Below are positions 3-63,093 of a DNA stretch of 64,000 nt, piece by piece; positions within the stretch are counted from its first letter, which is position 1, and every line of letters starts with the position of its first letter. The position numbers were made by a program, and so were the translations under genes. The notes beneath the pieces were generated by a model, which saw only the letters and a program-made list of their open reading frames with translations, did no database searches and was not told the DNA's origin. The DNA comes from a virus (lineage: Duplodnaviria; Heunggongvirae; Uroviricota; Caudoviricetes). The DNA is taken from positions 1-64,000 of IMG/VR virus record IMGVR_UViG_3300012016_000001; one strand, 5' to 3'.

Positions 3-809
3 GATGTTAAAAGTTTGTATCCAAAAACTTATCAAAGAGAATTGGTTAATAAACAATTTAATCAACTCATTGATGTAGCTAAACAGGATATGAATCGTCA
101 AACTGGCTTTATAGTGGCTCTTGATGTTTCAGGGTCAATGACCTCTAAAGCTCCAGGTACAGGACGTTCTGCTTATTCTGTTGGGCGTGCTATGGCATTG
201 TACTTCTCTGAATTATTAAAAGGTAAGTTTGCACATACATTCTTAGCTTTTAGTAATACAGTTGTGATAGATAGATTTGAAGGTAAAACTCCTTTAGAGA
301 AATATTACAATGGATATAGAAAGTATGATGCTTGTAACACTAACTTCTTCCAGATTGCTCAGTTGTTTGTGCAACTAAAGAATAGAGGATACAAAGAAGA
401 AGATTTTCCAACAGGTATCGTATGTATATCTGATGGAGAATTTGATAGACCTGGAGGAGACTGGAATAGTACTGGTGATTCTGATTGGAGATATAGAGGA
501 AAAGAAACCAGAGAGACAGTCTTTGAATCTTTTAAGAATCATTTAAAGAAAAATGGCTTCTCCGAAGAGTATGTTGATAACTTAAAAATGGTTCTTTGGG
601 ATGTTCCAAGCTATTACTATAGTTCTAGTCCAGATGTAAAGTTTGAAGCTCTTGCAGACACTCCAAACATTTTCCACATGAGTGGATATGACCCTGCAGG
701 TATTGCTTTCTTAACAGGAACATCACAAGTACAAGTAATTCCAAAAACTCCAGAGGAGTTATTTGAGGCTGCTATGCAGCAAGAGTTAATCCAATTGCTA
801 AACATTTGA
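3..809 (+). CDS. von Willebrand factor A (vWA) domain protein, 5' end outside window
   Basis: Frame is open to the window edge. MIDAS-like motif VALDVSGSM and downstream ISDGE motif. Confidence 0.6.
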   Translation, partial: DVKSLYPKTYQRELVNKQFNQLIDVAKQDMNRQTGFIVALDVSGSMTSKAPGTGRSAYSVGRAMALYFSELLKGKFAHTFLAFSNTVVIDRFEGKTPLEKYYNGYRKYDACNTNFFQIAQLFVQLKNRGYKEEDFPTGIVCISDGEFDRPGGDWNSTGDSDWRYRGKETRETVFESFKNHLKKNGFSEEYVDNLKMVLWDVPSYYYSSSPDVKFEALADTPNIFHMSGYDPAGIAFLTGTSQVQVIPKTPEELFEAAMQQELIQLLNI

Positions 810-3210: not shown

Positions 3211-3834
3211 ATGAAGAAATTTTTAGTACTCATGTTTGCCTTACTAATGGCTATTAGTTTTTAGAGTTGCACCAACTGTAGTGGTAATCCCAGTCTAAAC
3301 AGTCCTGTTAAAACTGAACTTGTAGTGGATCAAGCTATTAGCTTAGATAACTAGTACATGTTCATGAATTATGGTGAGAACTATCGTTGGTTTGAAACTT
3401 GCGTTCTTATGGACGATTTCCTAGATGAGGAAACTGATGGAAGTGTTAATATGGTTGTTAATATCTATCAGGTTGCAAAAGGTGATGATAAATCTTTCGA
3501 TGTTAAAGTATTCAAGTTTCAACACTTAAAAGATGGAACTGTTTTGAAAGATTCTGTTGCTGGTTTTTGGATAGAAGATAATCCTTTGAATGATTCAACT
3601 ATAAAGATTGATTACAAGGAAGCCTTTAATCTTGTTCAAAAGGTAAATCTACCTAAACCACATACTAGAAATGCTATTCTAAGGAATCCTCTTGGTCCTC
3701 TAGACACTAATCCACAGTGGGTGTTCGGAAATATCCGTGAACAAATATGGGTGGATGCAACCACAGGAGAAATTAGAAAATCAAATCCAGCATTTCCTGA
3801 TGAATTAAAAATGCCTCTTGGTGAATGGCCCTGA
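3211..3834 (+). CDS. putative lipoprotein containing two in-frame TAG codons (3262-3264 and 3352-3354)
   Basis: ATG at 3211 encodes MKKFLVLMFALLMAISF-TAG-SC, a signal peptide plus Cys. It is in frame with track ORF 3358-3834, and the only interruptions are two TAGs. Confidence 0.55.
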
Positions 3835-3997: not shown

Positions 3998-4065
3998 CAG
4001 AAGACACACAGCAAGTGCTTTATAATAAAAAATTTTAGGGAAATTTAATAATTATAAGTCTTCTG
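3998..4065 (+). ncRNA. CAGCAA-box long-range-helix element, copy E2
   Basis: CAGAAGAC (3998-4005) pairs with GTCTTCTG (4058-4065). CAGCAA at 4009-4014. Confidence 0.5.
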
Positions 4066-4070
4066 ATTTT

Positions 4071-4146
4071 GGCTTGTTGAGCCCACTGGAGTGGGAACTT
4101 GACTGTCACTCAAGTAAAACAAAGGGATCGATACCCTTGCAGGCCG
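4071..4146 (+). tRNA. tRNA-Asp(GTC), atypical D-arm and T-loop
   Basis: Acceptor GGCTTGT/GCAGGCC, anticodon arm CTTGA-CTGTCAC-TCAAG, T-arm AAGGG-ATCGATA-CCCTT with A at position 54. Confidence 0.55.
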
Positions 4147-4203
4147 CTAAATCAAAACTAATGAGTCTCTAAAGTATTTTTAAACAATTAAAGTGTAACC
4201 TGT

Positions 4204-4461
4204 ATGATTAACTCGATTCCTATAATGGACCAGAAGATTATTGATAAGTATTTTCCTGGCCAAGCAGTCAAGTCAATCATGCGTACACCGTTAAAGTCTG
4301 TGAGAGGCTATTCACTTGAAGGAAACAAAGGATTGCTTATAAGCACTCCGAAACTTAAACACCTTCTTGCTCTTTATGCTTCTCAGATAGCGTTACAAAC
4401 AAAATGGAATACTTCCCTTAATAAGGAAGGAGACCATTTGATTTGTCTCTTGTACCCTTAA
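4204..4461 (+). CDS. hypothetical protein (85 aa) between tRNA genes
   Basis: Track ORF. It is preceded by the 15-mer AACAATTAAAGTGTA, which recurs at 8315. Coding status is uncertain. Confidence 0.3.
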   Translation: MINSIPIMDQKIIDKYFPGQAVKSIMRTPLKSVRGYSLEGNKGLLISTPKLKHLLALYASQIALQTKWNTSLNKEGDHLICLLYP

Positions 4462-5116: not shown

Positions 5117-5205
5117 GCCCTCATCGTATATCGGTCAGTGCTGGAAACAGACGATTACCCCTGCCTTTTAAGCAGGTAAGCATGGTTCGACTCCATGTGG
5201 GGGCA
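5117..5205 (+). tRNA. tRNA-Lys(TTT) with about 17-nt expansion of the D-arm (89 nt)
   Basis: Acceptor GCCCTCA/TGGGGGC, anticodon arm CCTGC-CTTTTAA-GCAGG, T-arm CATGG-TTCGACT-CCATG. The D region is GTA-T-ATCG...CTG-GAAA-CAG...CGAT-TAC, an extended helix carrying a GAAA-capped hairpin. Confidence 0.6.
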
Positions 5206-5244: not shown

Positions 5245-5376
5245 AAAGAAGTCTTACAGCAATAACAATTAATCTAAGTTTACCAAAAAGCGCTGAACTT
5301 GTAGTTCAATGGTAGAATACCTTTTTATTAAAAAGGAGATGACGGTTCGAATCCGTGTGGCAAAAAAGACTTCTTT
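5245..5376 (+). ncRNA. CAGCAA-box element, copy E4, enclosing a tRNA-like core without a conventional acceptor stem
   Basis: AAAGAAGTCTT (5245-5255) pairs with AAGACTTCTTT (5366-5376). CAGCAA at 5257-5262. Inside are a D-arm GTTC-AATGGTA-GAAT, the hairpin CCTTT-TTATTAA-AAAGG, and a T-arm ACGG-TTCGAAT-CCGT. Confidence 0.5.
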
Positions 5377-6876: not shown

Positions 6877-7010
6877 ACTTTAAATATTGACCCTAGCTTT
6901 AGCTTCACACTTTAGCTTTACAGAATCCTAGATAGTAAGCATCAATGTTGTGGTCAAAAGCTTTAGCGAAGTTGATTACAGTGTATTACTTACCTTGACG
7001 ACTATTATCG

Positions 7011-7154
7011 CTCGGTAATCGCGGGTTCAAATCCCGTCCCGCCCTCAAACAGAGTTCTTCTGAACTCTGCCCTTTCATGTTACTTTAGTCATTGCTTGTG
7101 AAAGTAGTGACTATATGGGCGGGTCGTCTAGTGGTTAAGACTCCGGGTTTTTAA
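7011..7154 (+). tRNA. circularly permuted tRNA-Lys(UUU)-like gene: 3' half (7011-7045) lies upstream of the 5' half (7117-7154)
   Basis: The 3' half is CTCGG-TAATC-GCGGG-TTCAAAT-CCCGT-CCCGCCC-T. The 5' half is GGGCGGG-TC-GTCT-AGTGGTTA-AGAC-T-CCGGG-TTTTTAA. Acceptor and anticodon stems are complementary only between the two halves. Neither half has a partner in the normal gene order. Confidence 0.55.
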
Positions 7155-7228
7155 GCATCAGCATTATAGGGTAAAATGTAATACGCAAAAGTTCATGGAT
7201 TAGTAAGACGGATTTGTCGCTAATCCTA

Positions 7229-7301
7229 GGGAGAGTAGCTCAGTGGTTAAAGCAATAGTCGCTAAAACTATCGATCGAGGGTTCGAATCCCTCCTCTCCT
7301 G
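7229..7301 (+). tRNA. amber-suppressor tRNA, anticodon CTA (reads UAG), with G at position 33
   Basis: A 73-nt canonical cloverleaf: acceptor GGGAGAG/CTCTCCT, anticodon arm ATAGT-CGCTAAA-ACTAT, T-arm GAGGG-TTCGAAT-CCCTC. Confidence 0.75.
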
Positions 7302-7364: not shown

Positions 7365-7459
7365 AGCGGGTTATGCAAATGGTAAAGCAGTAGTTTATCT
7401 ATGTGAGTACGTATAGTTCTAGGCCAGTACTCTTGGGAGTTCGAGTCTCTCACCCGCTA
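7365..7459 (+). tRNA. 95-nt tRNA-like gene, anticodon undetermined
   Basis: Perfect acceptor AGCGGGT/ACCCGCT, D-arm TGC-AAATGGTAAA-GCA, T-arm GGGAG-TTCGAGT-CTCTC. The 44-nt central region has no canonical 5-7-5 anticodon arm. Its best helices are GAGTAC/GTACTC and CTATG-(8 nt)-TATAG. Confidence 0.4.
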
Positions 7460-7498: not shown

Positions 7499-7646
7499 AA
7501 AGGAGACGAACAGCAATTTCAACGTTTTGCATTTTGGTTGCCGAAGTTAGGGTTCGAATCCCTAGTCCTCCCTAATGGGAGGATTAGTGTAACTGGTAAG
7601 TGTGAAGTTAAGCACACGATAGCACGCGTTTTTGTTGGTCTCCTTT
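7499..7646 (+). ncRNA. CAGCAA-box element, copy E9, enclosing tRNA-Ser-like pieces in permuted order
   Basis: AAAGGAGAC (7499-7507) pairs with GTCTCCTTT (7638-7646). CAGCAA at 7511-7516. Inside, the T-arm TAGGG-TTCGAAT-CCCTA and GTCCTCC are followed after 6 nt by GGAGGAT, the same acceptor as the tRNA-Ser at 7851. Confidence 0.45.
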
Positions 7647-10704: not shown

Positions 10705-11063
10705 GGGCCTGACCGGATTTGACGGCTTCTGAAGGTAAATCACTCACTCATGACTGATGGAAAGACATCAAAAAAATTAAACGGAGAAAATAACACAACT
10801 CCCCGCGCTAAAGTTGTTAGCATCGTTTATAGAGCTGCAGCTTGATCGACGCCTGGTAAAAGGGTAACCAAGGAACATAATACCCTTAATTTCTTTATTT
10901 TTAGCCAATAATATTCTGCGCCTATCGGAGATATAACTAAATAGGCTGGTGGAAAGTCAGACAACAGTCTGCCCCAGAGAAGGAAACTCTTATAAAACCT
11001 ATGAGTGTAAGAATGTGATGAGAATAGGATTCGCGGACGAGGGTTCGACTCCCTCCAGGTCCA
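10705..11063 (+). ncRNA. ssrA: tmRNA (SsrA), one-piece
   Basis: The 5' end GGGCCTGACCGGATTTGACGG and the 3' end GGACGAGGGTTCGACTCCCTCCAGGTCCA closely resemble bacterial tmRNA termini. Acceptor GGGCCTG/CAGGTCC has a G3:U70 pair. Internal tag ORF at 10783-10845. Confidence 0.88.
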
Positions 11064-11317
11064 CTTGTTAAATAATGTTAAATTTATTGTGGATTTATAT
11101 TGTTATTTATATATTTAATCCTGTAAAAACGTTCATTATAGTAAAGATAAAATGTTCCAGCACTCACGGCTACAAACTGAGTGACTAGTGTTCAACAAGA
11201 GCGCAGTATTACTATCACAGCTGAACTATAGAGGCAGTGAAGACTTTATGGTCGAACTGAGGGCAGTTTAGTCTGGAACAATCTAAGCTGTTCTCTTTAC
11301 TTGTGAAATTCATAAAT

Positions 11318-11979: not shown

Positions 11980-12183
11980 ATGAAAGAAAGAATAAGAAAG
12001 ATTATTGAAAGAATTACTGAACGTAAAATTACAAATGATGATGAGCCTATAGAGATGGATAGTATAGACACTATGGAAGTTATAGTAAGTCTAGAGTATG
12101 AATATGACATCCATATAGATACTATTATAAAGGAGGATTTATCATTAAATGATTACGTTGAGTTAGTTAGGAGCATGGTGTAA
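11980..12183 (+). CDS. acyl carrier protein-like small protein
   Basis: 67 aa with EMDSIDTMEVIVSLEYEY, which matches the ACP DSLD phosphopantetheine-site helix. The track ORF N-terminus overlaps tRNA-His. Confidence 0.55.
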   Translation: MKERIRKIIERITERKITNDDEPIEMDSIDTMEVIVSLEYEYDIHIDTIIKEDLSLNDYVELVRSMV

Positions 12184-12252
12184 TGGTAGCACATCTGACT
12201 TTGACTCAGAAGGGAGCGTGAGCCACTGCAGGTTCGAGTCCTGCTGCTCCTA
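12169..12252 (+). tRNA. tRNA-Gln(TTG) with a 17-nt variable region; overlaps the last 15 nt of the ACP-like CDS
   Basis: Acceptor AGGAGCA/TGCTCCT, anticodon arm TCTGA-CTTTGAC-TCAGA, variable region AGGGAGCGTGAGCCACT (GC-GTGA-GC mini-hairpin), T-arm GCAGG-TTCGAGT-CCTGC. Confidence 0.7.
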
Positions 12253-12290
12253 CTTGTCTCCATTAAGGAGAATTTTAAAGGTGTTTGTTC

Positions 12291-12320
12291 AACTCACTGG
12301 TTTGCGAAAATAGGTGAGTT
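12291..12320 (+). ncRNA. conserved-loop hairpin H3 (loop TGGTTTGCGAAAATAG), 6 nt upstream of a tRNA
   Basis: Stem AACTCAC/GTGAGTT. Confidence 0.5.
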
Positions 12321-12325
12321 TAAAT

Positions 12326-12410
12326 GCTGCGTTCGACTAGTGGCTTAGGTCACAAGACTTTCAATCTTGTAGGATGAAAATCCTCAGGGGTTCGAATCCC
12401 CTACGCAGTA
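12326..12410 (+). tRNA. tRNA-Glu(TTC) with a 16-nt variable arm
   Basis: Acceptor GCTGCGT/ACGCAGT, anticodon arm CAAGA-CTTTCAA-TCTTG, variable arm T-AGGAT-GAAA-ATCCT-C, T-arm AGGGG-TTCGAAT-CCCCT. Confidence 0.75.
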
Positions 12411-12414
12411 CTAA

Positions 12415-12688: not shown

Positions 12689-13108
12689 ATGTTAGATTAT
12701 GAGATTTACACTGATGGTGCTTATAGCAACACCAGAAATCAAGGCGGAATTGGAATTGTAATAATTAAAGATGGAGAATACGTATATAAGTATTCTAAAG
12801 GCTTTGAGAATACAACCAATAATCGAATGGAAATGATGGCAGTAATGGCAGCATTAAATGCTATTAAAAATCCAATCAATTCTTTAGTTATCTATACAGA
12901 TAGTCAGTATGTTATAGGATGTGCTACTCTTGGATGGAAACGTAAAAAGAATGTAGAATTGTGGATGAAGTTCGATAAGGTATTTGAGCAGGCTACGAAG
13001 CTTGTCAAAACTCCAATTCGTTTTGAGCATGTAAAAGGTCATGCTGATAACGTTTATAATAATCTTTGTGACGAGATAGCAGTAAATGCTTCTCACGAGG
13101 TATTATAA
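12689..13108 (+). CDS. rnhA: ribonuclease HI
   Basis: YTDGA...MEMMAVMAAL...IYTDSQYV...VKGHADNVYN, the RNase H DEDD-type motif order. Confidence 0.85.
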   Translation: MLDYEIYTDGAYSNTRNQGGIGIVIIKDGEYVYKYSKGFENTTNNRMEMMAVMAALNAIKNPINSLVIYTDSQYVIGCATLGWKRKKNVELWMKFDKVFEQATKLVKTPIRFEHVKGHADNVYNNLCDEIAVNASHEVL

Positions 13109-47002: not shown

Positions 47003-47503
47003 TTGAATATGCTAGACATTGATAACATACATGTTGATTTAGATATAGTATTATCTAAAAAGACTACATTAAAGCAGTTACTTAATCCAACTGAGTTAGC
47101 TTCTTTAAAGTCTAAAGCTATTAAAAACCACTATGATGATGCAGCCATAATGGAAGCAGCTCATAGGCTTATTAAAGAGAACATTGCAGATTACTTAGAT
47201 AATTCTGATTTTCTTGATGCTAATGTAATATTAGAAACAGACCCTTATATAATTAAGGCTATGGAACTAATGCAAGCTAGTCAACGAGACGCTGGAATAT
47301 TACTTGTAGAAAAAGAGTATAAATATCCGGGATGTTGGGTAAATGATATAGCTAATGCATTAAGAGAACTTAAATGTAGTAGTGATATGTATAACACATT
47401 GGTATGGGATGCTTATTATGTACATAATTATACTAATAATGAAAATATCCCGGGATGGAAAAACCTTCAAGATGTGTTAGAAGATTACTATGACACACTA
47501 TGA
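47003..47503 (+). CDS. hypothetical protein
   Basis: 166-aa ORF (TTG start or ATG at 47009). Confidence 0.5.
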   Translation: MNMLDIDNIHVDLDIVLSKKTTLKQLLNPTELASLKSKAIKNHYDDAAIMEAAHRLIKENIADYLDNSDFLDANVILETDPYIIKAMELMQASQRDAGILLVEKEYKYPGCWVNDIANALRELKCSSDMYNTLVWDAYYVHNYTNNENIPGWKNLQDVLEDYYDTL

Positions 47504-48708
47504 CATTAGTTACTAGAGACAGTAAAGGTAAAATCAGAGTCGTTGATATATGGACGAATCACGACTCTGATTCCTCTACTATATGTAGAGAGACTTACCA
47601 ATATCTAGGAAAACATACAAGACAACCTGATATTGTAATAGAAGCTGGAAAAGCTGGGCGTGATATTGCAGCACAATGTGAATTACAATTTATGTCTCAG
47701 TTAAAAAGTTATAAAGATAAAGGTTATAAAGAATTAGAAAAAGACATATCTAAGTATACAGAAAAAGAACTAAATGAAATAGTTGGAGATACTATTACTA
47801 ATCAGCATGGTGTACAAAAACCCATGTTAGCTAAGCAAGCTGACAAAGTGTCTCAAAAGGCTATTGATAAAGTTCCTTACTGGTACGCGAGCAGAAAAAT
47901 AGATGGAGTACGCTGTTCTTTCTATTTAGATGGGGATACTATAAGAACATCTAGTAGAGGAGGAGAGGACTACGATTGTGCTTGTATGCACTTTATAAAT
48001 AATGAAAAATTAAAGAAATTCTATGAAAGGCATCCTGGAATAGTCTTAGATGGTGAACTATATAAACACGGACGGAGCCTTCAACAAATCTCAGGCGCTG
48101 CAAGACTTGAAAAGAATGCTGTAGACTGTGACTGGCTAGAATATTATATTTATGACATCGTAGACACTAACAGAACGTTTGAAGAAAGACTTAAAGTGTT
48201 GGCTGCAATTAAATATGAACTTGGACTCGGATTCAATCCAGAAAGAGAATGGAAAGAAGGAGAACTACAGTTCCAAATGGTTCCACAACAAAAGGTGTCT
48301 GGCTTCAAGAATATAAATATACTTCACGATATTTATGTATCAGAAGGATGGGAAGGAGTCGTTATCAGAGACCCATCTAAAGTGTATAGACCTAATGGGC
48401 GTACCAATGATATGATAAAATTTAAGAAGTATAAAGATGCAGAATTTTTAGTTATAGATTATGAACTAGGTCTTAGAGGTACTGAAGATATGACCTTTAC
48501 TTGTACTACTCCTGCTGGACTAGAGTTTAAGGCTAAGCCTTGGGGAGATAGAGCTATTAAAGAGGAATATGTAAAGAACTTTAAAACTAAGTATCAATAT
48601 AAGTTAGCAAAGATTAAGTTTTTCTATTATTCTAACGGAAATAATGAAAAGACTGGAGTTCCACTTCAACCATCACTTATATGTTTCCGTGATAAATCTG
48701 ATATGTAA
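47500..48708 (+). CDS. ATP-dependent DNA ligase
   Basis: Nucleotidyltransferase motifs: I SRKIDGVRC, III LDGELY, IV EGVVIRD, V MIKFKKYKD. Confidence 0.7.
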   Translation: MTLVTRDSKGKIRVVDIWTNHDSDSSTICRETYQYLGKHTRQPDIVIEAGKAGRDIAAQCELQFMSQLKSYKDKGYKELEKDISKYTEKELNEIVGDTITNQHGVQKPMLAKQADKVSQKAIDKVPYWYASRKIDGVRCSFYLDGDTIRTSSRGGEDYDCACMHFINNEKLKKFYERHPGIVLDGELYKHGRSLQQISGAARLEKNAVDCDWLEYYIYDIVDTNRTFEERLKVLAAIKYELGLGFNPEREWKEGELQFQMVPQQKVSGFKNINILHDIYVSEGWEGVVIRDPSKVYRPNGRTNDMIKFKKYKDAEFLVIDYELGLRGTEDMTFTCTTPAGLEFKAKPWGDRAIKEEYVKNFKTKYQYKLAKIKFFYYSNGNNEKTGVPLQPSLICFRDKSDM

Positions 48709-52584: not shown

Positions 52585-52760
52585 CCTACAGAGTTCATTG
52601 TCACGAGCTAGTCTGGATGAACACTATATATGAAGTAGAAGCAGATTCTCCAGAAGATATAGAAGATATAATACTCTCAGGAGAGGCAAACGAAGTTCAA
52701 GCAGATTTTGATTGTTTAGATCAATGTGATATAGAAAGTATAATACCTATTGATGAATAA
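52581..52760 (+). CDS. small acidic protein (59 aa)
   Basis: ATGA overlap. Fills the gap between track ORFs. Confidence 0.3.
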   Translation: MTYRVHCHELVWMNTIYEVEADSPEDIEDIILSGEANEVQADFDCLDQCDIESIIPIDE

Positions 52761-53649
52761 AATTATATTATGTCAAGGCATTCAAGGCTCAGGTAAATCT
52801 ACCTGGGCCAAAGCCTGGGCTAAGGAAAACCCAGAGCATAGAGTAAGACTCAATTATGATGACCTACGTAACATGTTAGGAGTTTATTGGGTACCATCTA
52901 GGGAAGATATGCTTAAAGCTATAGAAGAAGCCTTTCTTACTAAGGCTGCAACAAAGAATTGGGATATTGTTATAGATAATATGAACTTGAATCCAAAAAC
53001 TATTGCTAAATATGAGGAATGGGCAGCAGTTAATGGTTATCAACTTGAAAAGGTTCTATTTGATACTCCAGTAGAAGAATGTATAAGAAGAGATGCTATG
53101 CGCCCTAATCCTATTGGTGAAGTAGTTATCAAACGTACTTGGAATACCTATAGAAACTATATAATACAAGAGAGTATTAAAAAGATGAAAGAAAGAGAAC
53201 TTAAACAAGATCCTAATCTTCCACACTGTATTCTTGTAGATATGGATGCTACTCTCTTTTTAAATACTAGTGGGCGTCCTTTTTATGGAGATAATTTGGA
53301 ACCTACTGATATATTAAAAGATGAACCTATTCCAGGTACTATAGCCTTAGTAAAGGCTTATCAAGCTAGTGGTAATCTAGTATTTGGATTAAGTGGGCGC
53401 GAAGATATACAAGGTATTCGTTTGAACACTGAAAAACAATGTGCTAACCAAGGAATATATCTTGATAAATTATTCTTACGTCCAAAAGGTTCTCGTAAAA
53501 AGGGAGACGAGCAAAAGAAAGAACTATTTGAAAAATACATTAAAGGGCAGTTTTATGTAGACTTTGTTCTTGAGGATTCTTCTAAAGTAGTTAAAATGTA
53601 TAGAGATTTAGGACTTACTGTTCTACAACCAAATGAAGGAAAGTTCTAA
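52753..53649 (+). CDS. polynucleotide 5'-kinase/3'-phosphatase (T4 Pnkp-like)
   Basis: N-terminal IILCQGIQGSGKSTWAKAW closely matches the T4 Pnk P-loop. C-terminal HAD motif LVDMDATL. Confidence 0.8.
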   Translation: MNKIILCQGIQGSGKSTWAKAWAKENPEHRVRLNYDDLRNMLGVYWVPSREDMLKAIEEAFLTKAATKNWDIVIDNMNLNPKTIAKYEEWAAVNGYQLEKVLFDTPVEECIRRDAMRPNPIGEVVIKRTWNTYRNYIIQESIKKMKERELKQDPNLPHCILVDMDATLFLNTSGRPFYGDNLEPTDILKDEPIPGTIALVKAYQASGNLVFGLSGREDIQGIRLNTEKQCANQGIYLDKLFLRPKGSRKKGDEQKKELFEKYIKGQFYVDFVLEDSSKVVKMYRDLGLTVLQPNEGKF

Positions 53650-54783: not shown

Positions 54784-55134
54784 ATGACTAAAGAAGAATT
54801 TTTATCTAAACGTACACCAGTATTTGTAGACCCAGAGATTGGGACTATAACACTGGTTAATAATTCTAATTTGAAAGATAAAGATTTTGCAGAAATATTT
54901 TCAAATATAAAAATTAGTTGGCTAGACACAACAAGAGGATACCTACTAGATGATTTTCTGATGTTGTATATAAACGATTATGAAATTCCACGTTTTCATA
55001 TAGGTTGTTGTACTTACTTTTTCAATATGTTTCCTAATATAAACTGGTTAGGATTAGGGTGCAATAAAGGTAAACCTGGAGAAATATGGATACCAAAATT
55101 AATAGTTAGTAAAGGTGATATATGTAGTCTCTAA
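54784..55134 (+). CDS. hypothetical protein
   Basis: Track ORF 54739-55134. The internal ATG at 54784 avoids overlap. Confidence 0.45.
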   Translation: MTKEEFLSKRTPVFVDPEIGTITLVNNSNLKDKDFAEIFSNIKISWLDTTRGYLLDDFLMLYINDYEIPRFHIGCCTYFFNMFPNINWLGLGCNKGKPGEIWIPKLIVSKGDICSL

Positions 55135-57388
55135 TCAAACATCTTTCTATTCTAGATTTTCTAGAATTTCTATAAAAGAATCTTTAGATATTATAAAACA
55201 ATGGGAAAGTATTCAATATGACTCTGAGACTCTTGGTAAGGATGCTCACTGTGGTAAACCTCTTTCTGCGCAATTTGGTTCTCCTAAAAAGGATATTCAA
55301 ATTGTAGTTGATTGGACAACAGTAGATGCTCGTAATTATAAGGAAGTTTTAGAAAGTAAACTAATTGTAGGTCAGAATTTAAAGTTTGATTTACAATGGT
55401 TATATAACTATAGTATTACTCCCTTAAGAGTATATGATACTATGATTGCTGAGCAACTCATTTATTTAGGATTTCCTCCTGCAGGTAAACCAGGAGGAAT
55501 ATCCTATGCTTTGAATGAAATTGCGATGCGTTATCTTGGTAAGTATATTGATAAAACTGTTAGAGGTCAGATTCAGTGGAGAGGATTAGATGATGACGTA
55601 ATAGAATATGCAGCAAACGATGTAGTAGACCTAGTAGATATAGCTAAAAAGCAAATAGAGATATGTAAAGAACGTAAATGTATGCGAGCTCTTCAAATTG
55701 AAATGTCTTTTGTTCCTGTTATAGCTTACTTAGAGTGGTGTGGAATTAAATTAGACGTTACTAAATGGAAAGCTAAGATGCAAAAAGACGAAAATAATAG
55801 ACTTAATAGACTTGAAAAATTAAATCAATTCCTTGTTAAATGGTATCAAGATAATAATGGAAAAGATAATATGGTTAGTGTTCCGTATATAGTATCTTCC
55901 TTTATAAAGGAGAATATACAAGAACCTCCACCTAATGCTAAACCTACTTCTCGCCCATATAAAAAGGAGGGAAATGAAGACGATCTTTTCCAGAATTATT
56001 CTATTCCATTCTATATTACAAATAAAAGTGGAAAGATAATCCCATTTATAAAAATAGATTTACAAGGTGATTTATTTCTAGGTTTTAATACCGGTCCACA
56101 ATGTGTACTTAATTGGGATAGTTCTGACCAAGTTATTTATTTCTGTCAACTACTAGGATTTAATACTAAAGTAGAAGATAAAGTTACTGGTGAAGATAAA
56201 GATTCTGTAGTGGAAAAGGCTCTAAAAGTCCAAAAAGGAATAAATGATGAATTTTTAAATCTATATTTTGATTATAAAGAAGCATCTAAAGTGTGTAGTA
56301 CTTATGGTCAAACATATCTAAATGCAATTAATCCTAATACAGGAAGAATTCATACTAACTTTAAGCAATTAGGAGCTTCATCAGGAAGAATGGCATGTGG
56401 AAGTAAACAAGCTAATGATGATTTAGCTAAACTTAAACACGAAGAACTTTCTAAACTACCTTCTAAATTAAGAAAATGTGGTTATCCACAATTACAAAAT
56501 CTTCCAGCTGACCATGATACTAGAGGGGCATTTGTACCTGAAAAAGGAAATCTAATGTGTTCTTGTGATTATTCTGCTCTAGAAAGTAGACTTGGTGCAG
56601 ATATATATCAAGAACAATCTATGATAGATGAATATCTATATGGTACTGGAGATATTCATTCTTTAACAGCTAAACATTGTTTTCCTAAAGAACTAGAAGG
56701 TATTGAAATTAAAGATATTAAGAAACTTAGACCTGATTTGAGAAGTAGAGCTAAGCCAGTAGAATTTTCTCAACAATTTGGAGGAAGTGCAAAAGCTATT
56801 CAAAGTGCTTTAGGTTGTACTGCAGCAGAGGCAAAAGAAATAGCAGAAGCATATAACAGTGGTTTTGCTGGTATAGCACGCTTCAAAGATATAGGGTTTA
56901 AGAAAGTATGTAGAGATGGTTATGTTCTTATATGTAAATATACTGGACATAGAACTTATATGCCAGATTGGCCAGAGTGGAGAAAGGCTATGGATGATGA
57001 AGAATTTTGGGATGAATATGATGCTGCTAAAGACACTTTACCATATAAAGAGTTTAGTAAAACAGCAGTCTATCATAAAGCTTCTGAATTAAGAAAAACT
57101 TCTTCTAAATGGTCTAGACTAGCTCTTAATTCTCCTACTCAAGGTACTGGCATTATCATTTTAAAAGATGCTATGTCTAACTTCTTTAAATGGATAATTG
57201 ATAATAAGTTATTCAATATAGTTAAAATATGTGATTTAGTACATGATGAAGCTGTAATCGAATATCCAAAATCTATGCCAGAAGTAGCTAACATTCTCAA
57301 GGATATAATGGAAAAGTCCGCAGAAAAATTCTGTAAGGCTTTACCTATTCCTGCTGCTCCAGAAGTTGGAATGTGCTGGTTGCATTAA
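55115..57388 (+). CDS. family A DNA polymerase with 3'-5' exonuclease domain
   Basis: Exo motif YDSETLG. Polymerase motifs DYSALESRL (A), RSRAKPVEFSQQFGG (B), LVHDEAV (C). Confidence 0.85.
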   Translation: MIYVVSNQTSFYSRFSRISIKESLDIIKQWESIQYDSETLGKDAHCGKPLSAQFGSPKKDIQIVVDWTTVDARNYKEVLESKLIVGQNLKFDLQWLYNYSITPLRVYDTMIAEQLIYLGFPPAGKPGGISYALNEIAMRYLGKYIDKTVRGQIQWRGLDDDVIEYAANDVVDLVDIAKKQIEICKERKCMRALQIEMSFVPVIAYLEWCGIKLDVTKWKAKMQKDENNRLNRLEKLNQFLVKWYQDNNGKDNMVSVPYIVSSFIKENIQEPPPNAKPTSRPYKKEGNEDDLFQNYSIPFYITNKSGKIIPFIKIDLQGDLFLGFNTGPQCVLNWDSSDQVIYFCQLLGFNTKVEDKVTGEDKDSVVEKALKVQKGINDEFLNLYFDYKEASKVCSTYGQTYLNAINPNTGRIHTNFKQLGASSGRMACGSKQANDDLAKLKHEELSKLPSKLRKCGYPQLQNLPADHDTRGAFVPEKGNLMCSCDYSALESRLGADIYQEQSMIDEYLYGTGDIHSLTAKHCFPKELEGIEIKDIKKLRPDLRSRAKPVEFSQQFGGSAKAIQSALGCTAAEAKEIAEAYNSGFAGIARFKDIGFKKVCRDGYVLICKYTGHRTYMPDWPEWRKAMDDEEFWDEYDAAKDTLPYKEFSKTAVYHKASELRKTSSKWSRLALNSPTQGTGIIILKDAMSNFFKWIIDNKLFNIVKICDLVHDEAVIEYPKSMPEVANILKDIMEKSAEKFCKALPIPAAPEVGMCWLH

Positions 57389-60537: not shown

Positions 60538-61103
60538 ACAAAACTCTAATTATCGTAGACCCACAGTATGACTTTATAGAAGGTGGAAAACTTCCAGTAG
60601 AAGGAGGTAAACAAGCGTTAGACAATGTTGTTGATTACCTTAATTCTGGAGAGGTATCTTTAGTCATCATCACACAAGATTGTCATAATGGAATGCATTG
60701 CTCATTTAAAGAGCAAGGAGGACCATGGCCAGAACATTGTGTTGAAGGAACTCATGGAGCAGAAATTTATAAACCTATATTAGATGCTATAGAGAAAAAC
60801 CATATTATGGTCTATTATCTACAGAAAGGACATTACTTAGAAGAGTATTCTGCTTTTCGTAGACAAACAGAAGGATATGCTCACTGGAAAGAGTATTCTA
60901 CAGAAGATGATAGAGAACCTTATATTCAGTTCCATGAAGATGAAATAGTTCAAATTTGTGGATTAGCTGGAGATGTTTGTGTTATGAGGACTGCTATAAT
61001 CCTTAAAGATATCAAACCCGTAATCATTGAAGATTTAACTGCTTCTTTAAATGCTGATAACTTTAGGAAACTTGCAGACATAAATGGAATTACAATAGTA
61101 TGA
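60534..61103 (+). CDS. pncA: nicotinamidase (isochorismatase family) PncA
   Basis: IIVDPQYDF (Asp), QDCHNGMHCSF (metal-site D-x-H...H-x-SF pattern), ICGLAGDVCV (catalytic Cys). Confidence 0.7.
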   Translation: MNKTLIIVDPQYDFIEGGKLPVEGGKQALDNVVDYLNSGEVSLVIITQDCHNGMHCSFKEQGGPWPEHCVEGTHGAEIYKPILDAIEKNHIMVYYLQKGHYLEEYSAFRRQTEGYAHWKEYSTEDDREPYIQFHEDEIVQICGLAGDVCVMRTAIILKDIKPVIIEDLTASLNADNFRKLADINGITIV

Positions 61104-61915
61104 TTAATAATCCAGTTTTAGGAGCAATCATAGGGGACATAATAGGTGTTCCCTATGAGTTCCTTCGAGTGCCTGGGACTAGTATTCCTAAGAATTTCCC
61201 ATTGTTCAAGAAAGATAGTCATTATTCAGATGATTCTGTAATGACTCTAGCTGTAGCAAGATGGTTATTAGAAAAAGATTTAAGTTCATCTGCCTTAATA
61301 AAGTGCATGCAGGAAGTTGGACAAGCACATCCAAATGCAGGTTATGGTGGAATGTTCAGAAGATGGCTATGGGATGAAAATCCAGTCCCATATAATAGTT
61401 GGGGAAATGGCTCAGCTATGCGTGTCAGTCCAGTTGCCTGTGCTTTTGATACAGAACAAGATGTCTTGAAATATGCAAAAATATCAGCTGATGTGTCACA
61501 TAATCACCCAGAAGGTGTAAAGGGTGCACAAGCTATTGCTTTTGCTATTTGGGCAGCACAAGATTGTTGGGGAAAAGATCCTATTAAATTTGAAGTAAGA
61601 GATTTTACTCAGTATGATTTAAATAGGACTCCTAGAGAAATCATAGATTCTGGATATTCTTTTGAAGTAAGTTGTCAAAAGTCTGTGCCTGAAGCAATAT
61701 GCTGTTTCTTAGATAGTAATTCTTATGAGGAGACTGTAAGAAAGGCTGTCTTACTTAAAGGAGATACAGATACTCAAGCTTGTATGGCTGGAGCTATAGC
61801 TGCAGCTTATTGGGGAATTCCAGAAGATATTGCAAGAAAAGGTATTGACTTACTTCCTGGAGACCTATTTGATATTTTGTATGATTTTAGTGACGAATTT
61901 AATTTACCATTATGA
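61100..61915 (+). CDS. ADP-ribosylglycohydrolase family protein
   Basis: GAIIGDIIGVPYEF, SDDSVMT, GDTDT motifs. Confidence 0.7.
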   Translation: MINNPVLGAIIGDIIGVPYEFLRVPGTSIPKNFPLFKKDSHYSDDSVMTLAVARWLLEKDLSSSALIKCMQEVGQAHPNAGYGGMFRRWLWDENPVPYNSWGNGSAMRVSPVACAFDTEQDVLKYAKISADVSHNHPEGVKGAQAIAFAIWAAQDCWGKDPIKFEVRDFTQYDLNRTPREIIDSGYSFEVSCQKSVPEAICCFLDSNSYEETVRKAVLLKGDTDTQACMAGAIAAAYWGIPEDIARKGIDLLPGDLFDILYDFSDEFNLPL

Positions 61916-63093
61916 TTTTAAGTATTTTAGACACTGATTTGTATAAGTTTACGACATCGTATGCTTATCAAAAGTTATACCCTAAAGCAATGGGTACGTT
62001 TGAGTATGTAGACAGAAATAACAACGTCTATGAGGATTCTTTTTTAATAGCCTTGAAAGAACAAATTAATATCCTAGAGACTATTAAATTAACACCTTCT
62101 GAATTCTTCAGTATACTTAATAATAAGTGGTTATCTAGATTTATTCCAACTTCTTATTGGGAATGGTTAAAGCAATTTAACTTTGAACCTAATAAGATTA
62201 AAGTCTGGCTTGATGAAAATAAACATTTACATATTACAGTTACTGATTACTTATATAAGGTGACTCTATATGAAGTTCCGTTACTTTATACAGTATCTGA
62301 ATGCTACTATAAGTACTATAATAAGTTAGCTAATTATGATTTGATGTTTGATAATTTAAAACAGAAAATCACTTTTGCTAATGAAGAAAATCTAATATTT
62401 TCTGAATTTGGCACTAGAAGAAGGTATTCTTCTAATATACATGAACAAGTTATTAAATATCTAAAAGATCATTCTAAAACTTGTGTAGGAACTTCTAATG
62501 TTTACTTTGCATTAAAATATGATATGATGCCCTGTGGTACTTTTCCACATGAATGGGTAATGTTCCATGGTGCAGTATGGGGATTTCAACAAGCTAATGA
62601 ACTTGCTATGAGAGACTGGGTAAGATGCTATGATGGAGATTTAGGAACTGTACTTGTAGATACATACACTACTAAATTTTTCTTAAAGCAATTCTCACGT
62701 AAGTATAGTAAGTTGTTTGATGGTCCTCGTATTGACTCTGGAGATGAAAGAGAGCTTGGAGATTTATTCATAGAGCATTATAAAGCTCTTAATATAAATC
62801 CACTTACTAAAACTTTAGTAATGAGTAATGCTCTTACATTTCCTAAGTTTAAAGAGATTAGAGATTATTTTGCTGGACGTATTAATGTTGTCGCTGGAAT
62901 AGGCACTAATCTTACCAATGACTGTGGAGTTGTACCACTCAATGAAGTTATGAAACTTATAGAATGCCAAGAATATGAAGGAGCACCTAAACTCCCTTGT
63001 ATTAAACGTTCTGATGATAAAGGTAAACGTCTGGGCAATGCTGTACAACATGATATCTTAGACCATATTTTATTAAATGCCTCGCAAGTCTAA
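61912..63093 (+). CDS. pncB: nicotinate phosphoribosyltransferase PncB
   Basis: N-terminal LDTDLYKFT, EFGTRRR, and C-terminal phosphoribosyltransferase core. Confidence 0.7.
   Translation: MILSILDTDLYKFTTSYAYQKLYPKAMGTFEYVDRNNNVYEDSFLIALKEQINILETIKLTPSEFFSILNNKWLSRFIPTSYWEWLKQFNFEPNKIKVWLDENKHLHITVTDYLYKVTLYEVPLLYTVSECYYKYYNKLANYDLMFDNLKQKITFANEENLIFSEFGTRRRYSSNIHEQVIKYLKDHSKTCVGTSNVYFALKYDMMPCGTFPHEWVMFHGAVWGFQQANELAMRDWVRCYDGDLGTVLVDTYTTKFFLKQFSRKYSKLFDGPRIDSGDERELGDLFIEHYKALNINPLTKTLVMSNALTFPKFKEIRDYFAGRINVVAGIGTNLTNDCGVVPLNEVMKLIECQEYEGAPKLPCIKRSDDKGKRLGNAVQHDILDHILLNASQV

Follow-up and report, generated by a model that had tools for sequence, protein, structure and literature searches.

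Two neighbouring phage tRNA genes, a tRNA-Gln(UUG) and a tRNA-Glu(UUC), carry an extra hairpin at the site of the class-II variable arm, and the arm of the latter belongs to a family inherited among phages, with its pairing rather than its sequence conserved. Both genes lie on the + strand of the first 64,000 nucleotides (nt) of the IMG/VR virus record IMGVR_UViG_3300012016_000001, the whole of this stretch being called the window below (coordinates are collected in Table 1). According to the textbook, long variable arms in bacteria are limited to Leu, Ser, Tyr and Sec tRNAs, a rule that phages break repeatedly and heritably, in about one in eight of the tRNA-Glu(UUC) genes we sampled. A sequence-only reading of the window had already put forward long arms on both tRNAs. 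Gene finding with ARAGORN and the Rfam tRNA model (gathering score 29 bits), followed by parsing of the arms by hand and by script, bears this out and places the arms at the class-II site.

Two canonical tRNAs with a hairpin at position 45/46

Outside the variable region both genes are canonical, as the sequence-only reading had stated. All seven acceptor pairs and all five T-stem pairs are formed, the anticodon stems have 5 base pairs (bp), and the anticodon loops read CUUUGAC in tRNA-Gln (anticodon at 12201-12203) and CUUUCAA in tRNA-Glu (anticodon at 12360-12362). Both D arms belong to the class-I type, their stems measuring 4 bp and their loops 7 and 9 nt, and the Levitt pair is A15-U48 in tRNA-Gln and G15-C48 in tRNA-Glu. 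In both, the insertion amounts to 12-13 nt at position 45/46 and is a plain hairpin, so that, between positions 45 and 48, the region reads as a class-I variable loop with an insert in its middle, U-A-(stem-loop)-U-C. An intron-containing tRNA, with an insertion at 37/38, a bulge-helix-bulge motif or a group I intron, was considered and rejected, the insertion being a plain hairpin at 45/46; in this region Rfam moreover found the tRNA model only.

The AGGAU-GAAA-AUCCU hairpin attributed to the 16-nt Glu arm is as clean as described. The unconstrained minimum-energy fold of the entire tRNA is a five-arm cloverleaf in which AGGAU/AUCCU is capped by GAAA, and the isolated variable region folds at -4.8 kcal/mol (z = -7.0 versus shuffles). 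The 17-nt Gln region has exactly the sequence that had been noted, and the small GC-GUGA-GC hairpin described in it is present in a weak and interrupted form, consisting of a G-U and a G-C pair, a 2x2 internal loop, a G-C and a C-G pair, and the GUGA loop. Isolated, this region reaches -2.7 kcal/mol (z = -0.7 versus shuffles), which is not beyond chance on its own sequence; thus the reality of the Gln hairpin rests on relatives. The cloverleaf of tRNA-Gln lies 1.2 kcal/mol above the minimum-energy fold.

The Glu arm is an inherited, phage-borne shape

IMG/VR was scanned with the motif CTTTCA, 8-33 nt, GGTTCGAATCC. The first 120 matching stretches, a limited and motif-restricted sample, held 82 well-formed tRNA-Glu(UUC) genes, and the variable region is at least 13 nt long in 10 of them (12%); altogether we collected 47 distinct long-arm tRNA-Glu(UUC) genes. 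Their layout is uniform: usually U-A, a stem of 5-7 bp, a loop of 4-5 nt of any sequence (GAAA, GUUG, GUAA, UUUUU, CACAA and CAAAA among others), the closing strand, and U-C. The arm is thereby a hairpin inserted mid-way in an ordinary UA|AC-type 4-nt loop, and its excision would leave UA|UC, compared with the common UAAC.

An alignment of 24 long-arm genes reveals covariation, as each of the four arm pairs tested shows two-sided changes. Pairing of the five-helix structure across this alignment amounts to 94%, a level reached by none of 500 shuffles; in the cells of the arm itself it is 73%, since some members have their register shifted by one. What the arm conserves is its pairing alone, with stem and loop sequence free to change; the arm is a shape and not a sequence signal.

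When the variable region is deleted before comparison, the nearest neighbour is a long-arm gene for 43 of the 47 long-arm tRNA-Glu genes versus 7 of 136 short ones, and thus the long-arm state is inherited in lineages, to about 75-85% core identity. The closest relatives of the window's tRNA-Glu are found in related contigs, locus L408 (a 183-kb contig) and locus L122, without mismatch over 62 nt, while genes at 94% core identity occur in L411 and L399, on contigs of about 390-410 kb. As the closest genes reside in differing large-phage contigs, these genes move between large phages. One phage-like contig (L398, 7514-7601) carries the same extra arm on both tRNA-Glu(UUC) and tRNA-Glu(CUC).

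The stricter family pattern CTAGNGG, 14-22 nt, CTTTCA, 19-33 nt, GGTTCGAATCC matches 34 viral contigs (complete list) and only 5 contigs in 185,579 species-representative prokaryotic genomes (596 Gb). All five of the latter are metagenome-assembled contigs and at least four are phage-like: dense tRNA arrays, with 10-26 genes, are present on three, one equals a 410,106-bp IMG/VR viral contig in length, and one, from an archaeal bin, has only two tRNA-like calls. The GenBank phage records contain a single relative, the uncultured 462-kb phage LR756500.1 with the Glu arm U-GUUG-GAAA-CAAC-UC, and no cultured phage was found among these records. The Glu-arm lineages are found almost only in phages, and the arm is kept through long divergence.

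Long arms in other isotypes

The feature is not particular to Lys, Gln and Glu. In class-I isotypes, all fetched loci combined hold 93 different long variable regions, 73 of which fold to hairpins of at least 3 bp, and they are spread over at least 16 isotypes, including Cys, Val, Met, Asn, Gln, His, Thr, Asp, Lys, Pro, Arg, Gly, Trp and Ala. The background rate, taken from an unrelated set of about 119 phage loci, is below 1%. Arms nonetheless cluster by genome, since other class-I tRNAs carry one in 15 of 148 cases where tRNA-Glu has an arm versus 14 of 568 where it has none (odds ratio 4.5, p = 1.5e-4). An association with suppressor tRNAs or recoding was not significant in the fetched segments (4/54 versus 4/122, p = 0.25). 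Specificity for tRNAs with a thiolated wobble U (Lys, Gln, Glu) was also considered; it is ruled out by the spread over at least 16 isotypes, and no long arm was present on 33 tRNA-Lys genes in one unbiased sample.

GNRA caps occur on 34% of the unusual arms, compared with 39% and 44% of the ordinary Leu and Ser arms of phages. The shared docking function that had been proposed for GNRA-capped hairpins is hence unsupported, and a GNRA loop as docking signal is ruled out by this equal frequency together with the loop variation in the Glu family. GNRA-capped extra hairpins had been listed for three tRNAs of the array, and those of tRNA-Gln and tRNA-Glu stand. The third, labelled Lys, is probably the ambiguous 89-nt tRNA-like gene of Table 1, which holds two tandem hairpins, CUG-GAAA-CAG and a perfect CCUGC-CUUUUAA-GCAGG (Lys UUU). 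If this gene is read as Lys(UUU), the GAAA-capped hairpin falls between the D and anticodon arms and so outside the variable region; ARAGORN instead calls Val(GAC). In the codon counts AAA is very common (490) and GUC rare (46), and no orthologue of the gene occurs in any fetched locus.

Close relatives and a mosaic tRNA-Gln

Close relatives were fetched via the RNase H gene just downstream of the tRNA pair. Three loci, L121-L123, are 73-76% identical and share the order Pro-Gly-Gly-(His)-Gln-Glu-Val-RNase H. The Glu arm is U-AGGAU-GAAA-AUCCU-C in the window, U-AGGAAG-GUUG-CUUCCU-C in L121 and U-AGGGAG-GUUG-CUCCCU-C in L122, the latter two being separated by a compensatory A-U to G-C change; orthologous arms are present in L121, L122 and L408. 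An unrelated short-loop tRNA-Glu occupies this position in L123. As for Gln, the arms of L121 and L123 are 21-nt hairpins on tRNAs that are identical elsewhere, yet they differ at no fewer than 8 positions, two compensatory pairs included. Both the Glu and the Gln arms are accordingly kept and covarying in related phages, where the sequence-only reading had proposed to look for them.

The Gln gene of the window has nonetheless a composite history. Its D arm is not the class-II-like one of the L121/L123 tRNA-Gln; it is identical to that of L122, where tRNA-Gln has a short loop, and all of 100 other phage tRNA-Gln genes with this same D arm have variable loops of only 4-5 nt. The 5' half is thus of the common short-loop type, whereas from the anticodon arm through the variable arm to the T arm the gene resembles the arm-bearing Gln genes of L121 and L123, which makes the window's tRNA-Gln a mosaic. 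The same 100 genes rule out that its arm is an old, widely shared feature. A search with the L121/L123-type Gln body, asking whether it is a remoulded Leu, Ser or Tyr tRNA, returned, self aside, only partial matches, almost all in the T-arm region. Separately, a tRNA-Pro(UGG) whose 14-nt variable region includes C(UUCG)G is found in L122 (8435-8520) and L123 (2942-3026).

Isotype and decoding

When the bodies were compared after masking of the anticodon and removal of the variable region, tRNA-Gln made up 35 of the 40 best matches for Gln, and tRNA-Glu 36 of the 40 for Glu (35 UUC, 1 CUC), in a database enriched in both isotypes. The phage uses GAA for 77% of its Glu codons and CAA for 78% of its Gln codons, and the catalytic Glu of the neighbouring RNase H is encoded by GAA. 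The E. coli glutaminyl-tRNA synthetase (GlnRS) recognizes U35, G36, a weak 1-72 pair, G2-C71, G3-C70 and G10. Correspondingly, the window's tRNA-Gln displays UUG, A1-U72, G2-C71, G3-C70 and G10; it deviates from the E. coli G73 discriminator rule by having A73, a rule that may not hold for Bacteroidales hosts. The tRNA-Glu possesses the bacterial set of UUC and A37, a cloverleaf of 7/5 type, and U13-G22 in a D arm of Glu type, as well as a G1-U72 pair. It departs, with its 16-nt region, from the short 4-nt variable loop without nucleotide 47 that is described as an identity feature for some glutamyl-tRNA synthetase (GluRS) enzymes (PMC9976931).

Collectively, both are most likely genuine elongator tRNAs that read the main Glu (GAA) and Gln (CAA) codons of the phage, and charging by the GluRS and GlnRS of the host is most likely normal. 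This is the economical reading given the body matches, the GAA and CAA usage, the GAA at the catalytic Glu and the Gln identity pairs.

What the arm may do

Among the possible roles we favour, tentatively, that the arm shields the variable-loop and core region from host tRNA nucleases or other host factors; a passenger without benefit ranks second, and a label for phage tRNAs, a structural brace and a switch of amino acid identity are less likely. The arm would be tolerated because, as in Leu, Ser and Tyr tRNAs, the variable region faces away from class-I synthetases, from EF-Tu and from the ribosome, and the translation machinery should accept it, since class-II tRNAs use the same position. 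It would then close and bulk up the exposed variable-loop and core region, so that host tRNA-directed nucleases or factors reading that region would spare the phage tRNA while the host tRNA is attacked. Hairpins are prone to deletion and precise excision restores a normal 4-nt loop, hence the persistence of the arm argues for a benefit, or selection.

There are precedents for nucleases of this kind. PtuA-PtuB of Retron-Eco7 cuts the tRNA-Tyr of E. coli in the variable loop (U47/C48), it does not cleave the tRNA-Tyr of phage SP15, and SP15 tRNA-Tyr with a shortened variable loop no longer protects against Retron-Eco7 (PMC12673091). Septu likewise cleaves the variable loop of tRNA-Tyr (PMC13096335). 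Furthermore, VapC52 cleaves variable or anticodon loops (PMC13273310), and RloC prefers tRNA-Glu when overexpressed (PMC2610378). In a broader version, large phages would keep an architecture of their own, with class-I isotypes, above all Glu, in class-II shape, as counter-defence or for orthogonality to host factors; we consider this possible without leaning on it.

Several observations weigh against protection by the arm. The many isotypes that bear arms have no obvious connection with known nuclease targets, and we know of no nuclease for the variable loop of tRNA-Glu or tRNA-Gln, nor of any in Bacteroidales. The clustering by genome may partly reflect shared ancestry, and the Gln arm of the window is poorly paired. 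Moreover, a short-loop Glu (L123) or Gln (L122) suffices at the same position in close relatives, and the arm is thus dispensable. Lastly, the phage encodes a ligase, a kinase-phosphatase, an ADP-ribosylglycohydrolase and a nicotinate phosphoribosyltransferase (Table 1), a set that, judged by these matches, looks like an RNA-repair and counter-defence toolkit. The kinase-phosphatase and ligase may instead heal or mature tRNA 3' ends left by flanking ribozymes (PMC10879173), and are therefore not independent evidence of nuclease pressure. These two enzymes do not discriminate among the explanatory models for the arm.

The strongest competitor to shielding is that the hairpin is a tolerated passenger, inserted or recombined at the one tRNA site that accepts insertions, with pairing kept for folding and no benefit, which we regard as conceivable if doubtful. 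Congruent with a passenger are the unconstrained stem and loop sequences, the scatter over at least 16 isotypes, the variable presence of the arm among close relatives, the recombination between tRNA genes that the mosaic Gln displays, and the likeness to ordinary Leu and Ser arms (the same GNRA frequency, Ser-like geometry). Such a passenger would however have been kept in the Glu genes of dozens of phages, through divergence down to some 75-85% core identity, although a simple deletion would give back the normal loop, and neither the clustering by genome nor, in particular, the near-exclusive occurrence in viral or phage-like contigs sits easily with it, the latter not being predicted by neutral tolerance alone.

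The arm could also be a self-label, by which a phage factor (a maturation or modification enzyme, or a nuclease acting on host tRNAs) tells phage tRNAs apart. The clustering in particular genomes would fit, as would the occurrence in large many-tRNA phages with RNA-processing genes, represented in the window by the kinase-phosphatase, the ligase, a Ro60-like protein and a transfer-messenger RNA (tmRNA). This is an unlikely role, though, for an arm present on only 2 or 3 of about 23 array tRNAs, as most would go unlabelled; no candidate partner protein was identified, and recognition could be by shape only, given the absent sequence conservation.

Similarly improbable, and slightly more so, is a structural brace that steadies the core of A+T-rich, rapidly made and under-modified phage tRNAs against misfolding or decay by quality control. 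The genome has a G+C content of 33.5% and very stable GNRA or UUCG caps are frequent, yet most tRNAs of the same array lack an arm, the stems of the Glu tRNA are already G+C-rich, and the Gln arm is itself unstable.

We deem an identity switch very unlikely, that is, charging by the Ser, Leu or Tyr synthetase with GAA and CAA partly recoded, as with the nematode V-arm tRNAs. The Glu arm is Ser-like in geometry, with 1 nt at the 5' side, 1-2 nt at the 3' side and ~5 bp, which leaves a small possibility of mischarging, and the discriminator A73 is that of Leu and Tyr tRNAs. Against this, the bodies are of Glu and Gln type with class-I D arms, A73 and G1-U72 are just as usual in short-loop phage tRNA-Glu, and a switch would affect the dominant Glu and Gln codons, one of which encodes the catalytic Glu. 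By established identity rules, the Ser determinants of E. coli (G73, G2-C71, C11-G24) are absent as well. Finally, decaying pseudogenes or prediction artefacts, suggested by several degenerate tRNA-like elements in the array and by the imperfect Gln arm, are hardly credible given that in both genes the acceptor, anticodon and T stems are perfect, the loops canonical and the model scores high, and that the Glu family is conserved with covariation.

Should nuclease protection by the arm be true, it would add a simple and easily testable structural principle to the tRNA arms race, and would point to undescribed nucleases of gut Bacteroidales aimed at the variable loop or core. Counter-defence, if true, would represent a second tRNA-based route of immune evasion beside mutation of the anticodon loop. 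On the practical side, the arms mark out a group of phage tRNAs whose scores from isotype classifiers may be wrong, and offer natural scaffolds, GluRS- and GlnRS-type tRNAs that tolerate an extra arm, for the engineering of tagged or orthogonal tRNAs.

Relation to known tRNAs

The arms resemble those of class-II tRNAs in being a 12-22-nt stem-loop between positions 45 and 48, with similar loop preferences and Ser-like geometry. Both variable regions exceed 10 nt and hold a stem-loop, as in class II, with a 5-bp stem in Glu and an interrupted one in Gln. The anticodons and bodies are in contrast those of Glu and Gln rather than of Leu, Ser, Tyr or Sec, and the 3-bp D stem and enlarged D loop of class II are replaced by 4-bp D stems and short loops. 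Nematode nev-tRNAs have class-II bodies and are charged with Leu. They bear long arms on tRNAs with class-I-isotype anticodons (Hamashima et al., cited in PMC5389517), but they are eukaryotic, and here the bodies fit the anticodon.

The tRNA-Tyr of SP15 likewise differs from its host counterpart in the size of the variable region, which is required there for anti-defence (PMC12673091); it is however a class-II tRNA with a somewhat longer arm, whereas here class-I isotypes gain one, and no matching defence system is known. Other phage tRNAs evade anticodon nucleases by mutations of the anticodon loop (PMC10264068), and T5 tRNA-Lys acts against PARIS (PMC11464382). The general logic is shared, in that variants replace the host tRNAs targeted by defence, but the anticodon loops of the present tRNAs are canonical and the change is architectural and located elsewhere. 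Allo-tRNAs and 8/4 tRNAs are also non-standard long-arm tRNAs, some of them in phage tRNA clusters (PMC5389517), yet they combine 8/4 or 9/3 acceptor/T stems with Sec-like D arms, as opposed to the standard 7/5 found here. Streptomyces coelicolor has type I and type II tRNA-Leu, so that one leucyl-tRNA synthetase charges an isotype with and without the arm (PMC6614811); there the arm is lost from a class-II isotype, and the setting is cellular, not viral. No description of long arms in class-I phage tRNAs was found in the literature, most subscription journals being outside the coverage, and a prior description is possible.

As a separate observation, a family of tRNAs of 91-92 nt called Ile(UAU) is present in loci L002, L018, L019, L025 and L033 and in about 15 others of viral origin. 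Their D arm is Sec-like (GUGUUGGUACAC), their variable region measures 24 nt, and they resemble the allo-tRNAs of PMC5389517.

The source phage and its tRNA array

Table 1. Positions of the tRNA genes, their arms and other features of the window.
Feature	Coordinates	Strand	Call or match	Detail
tRNA-Gln(UUG) gene	12169..12252	+	ARAGORN call ttg 12169-12253; Rfam 66 bits	84 nt through discriminator A73
tRNA-Gln variable region	12211..12227	+		17 nt, AGGGAGCGTGAGCCACT
tRNA-Glu(UUC) gene	12326..12410	+	ARAGORN call ttc 12326-12411; Rfam 54 bits	85 nt through discriminator A73
tRNA-Glu variable arm	12370..12385	+		16 nt, TAGGATGAAAATCCTC; U, AGGAU, GAAA, AUCCU, C
RNase H gene just downstream of the tRNA pair	12689-13108		Pfam RNase_H E = 6e-29	motif NNRMEMM
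Ambiguous tRNA-like gene	5117..5205	+	ARAGORN: Val(GAC)	89 nt; 21-nt variable arm
Amber-suppressor tRNA(CUA)	7229-7301	+	ARAGORN
tmRNA within the tRNA array	10705-11066	+	Rfam 68 bits	tag peptide GENNTTPRAKVVSIVYRAAA
Open reading frame	47500-48708		ATP-dependent ligase	with RNA-ligase match
Open reading frame	52750-53649		T4-type polynucleotide kinase-phosphatase
Open reading frame	61100-61915		ADP-ribosylglycohydrolase
Open reading frame	61912-63093		Nicotinate phosphoribosyltransferase

The window derives from a crAss-like, TAG-recoded gut phage of ~190 kb; related contigs measure about 185-193 kb. The DNA polymerase (55115-57388) shares 51% identity with its counterpart in a Bacteroides crAss-like phage (Kolpuevirus) and 34-37% with those of other crAss-like phages. 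The amber-suppressor tRNA, together with an in-frame TAG inside a lipoprotein-like open reading frame (ORF) near 3213 (about 3213-3830), indicates reassignment of TAG, as in many crAss-like phages. From 2.7 to 12.5 kb, the + strand holds 22 tRNAs and the tmRNA by the calls of ARAGORN.

A tRNA-like gene at 7365-7459 (+; 33 bits with the Rfam tRNA model) is well formed in its acceptor, D and T arms, with ~27 extra nt in place of the normal anticodon arm and a further 12 nt before the T arm. The final 15 nt of a 67-residue, acyl-carrier-protein-like ORF (11980-12183, +) overlap the 5' end of tRNA-Gln. Its match to a phosphopantetheine-attachment (PP-binding) domain is weak and below threshold (E = 0.008), the relatives lack a homologue, and the ORF was set aside as probably not meaningful.

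The array contains further unusual RNAs beside the tRNA pair. A permuted tRNA-like element at 6980-7228 (core 7013-7155), with counterparts in L121 (2414-2569) and L122 (about 4030-4260), runs in the order T arm, 3' acceptor strand, ~70-nt linker, 5' acceptor strand and D arm, and is enclosed by a leader/trailer helix of 17 bp that has a bulge of 7 nt, rich in U. Several compensatory changes in the acceptor and 'anticodon' stems are seen across the three phages. The core had been considered as a permuted or split tRNA-Lys gene, and was reinterpreted, its architecture being that of a YrlA-type bacterial Y RNA (PMC4201824); the element matches no Rfam family at E <= 1. An ORF that runs off the left end of the window (3-809, +) encodes a von Willebrand factor A (vWA) domain with a metal-ion-dependent adhesion site (MIDAS)-like DVSGS, and matches DUF7788 and, weakly, the vWA domain of Ro60. 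The protein is a possible Ro60 partner of the Y-RNA-like elements ~6 kb downstream.

Seven elements of ~70-155 nt between 2634 and 7652, starting at 2639, 3999, 5247, 5731, 5807, 5877 and 7501, follow a common plan of UAUAAAG and then an 8-11-bp closing stem, with ACAGCAA after the 5' strand of the stem. The motif AG-N8-CAGCAA is observed 8 times against 1.8 expected, 7 of the 8 being inside the tRNA array. A tRNA-like module is enclosed in two of the seven, at 5302-5357 and at 7548-7620, the latter with a T arm and then an acceptor-like hairpin. These seven elements could be further Y-like RNAs or ribozyme-related units.

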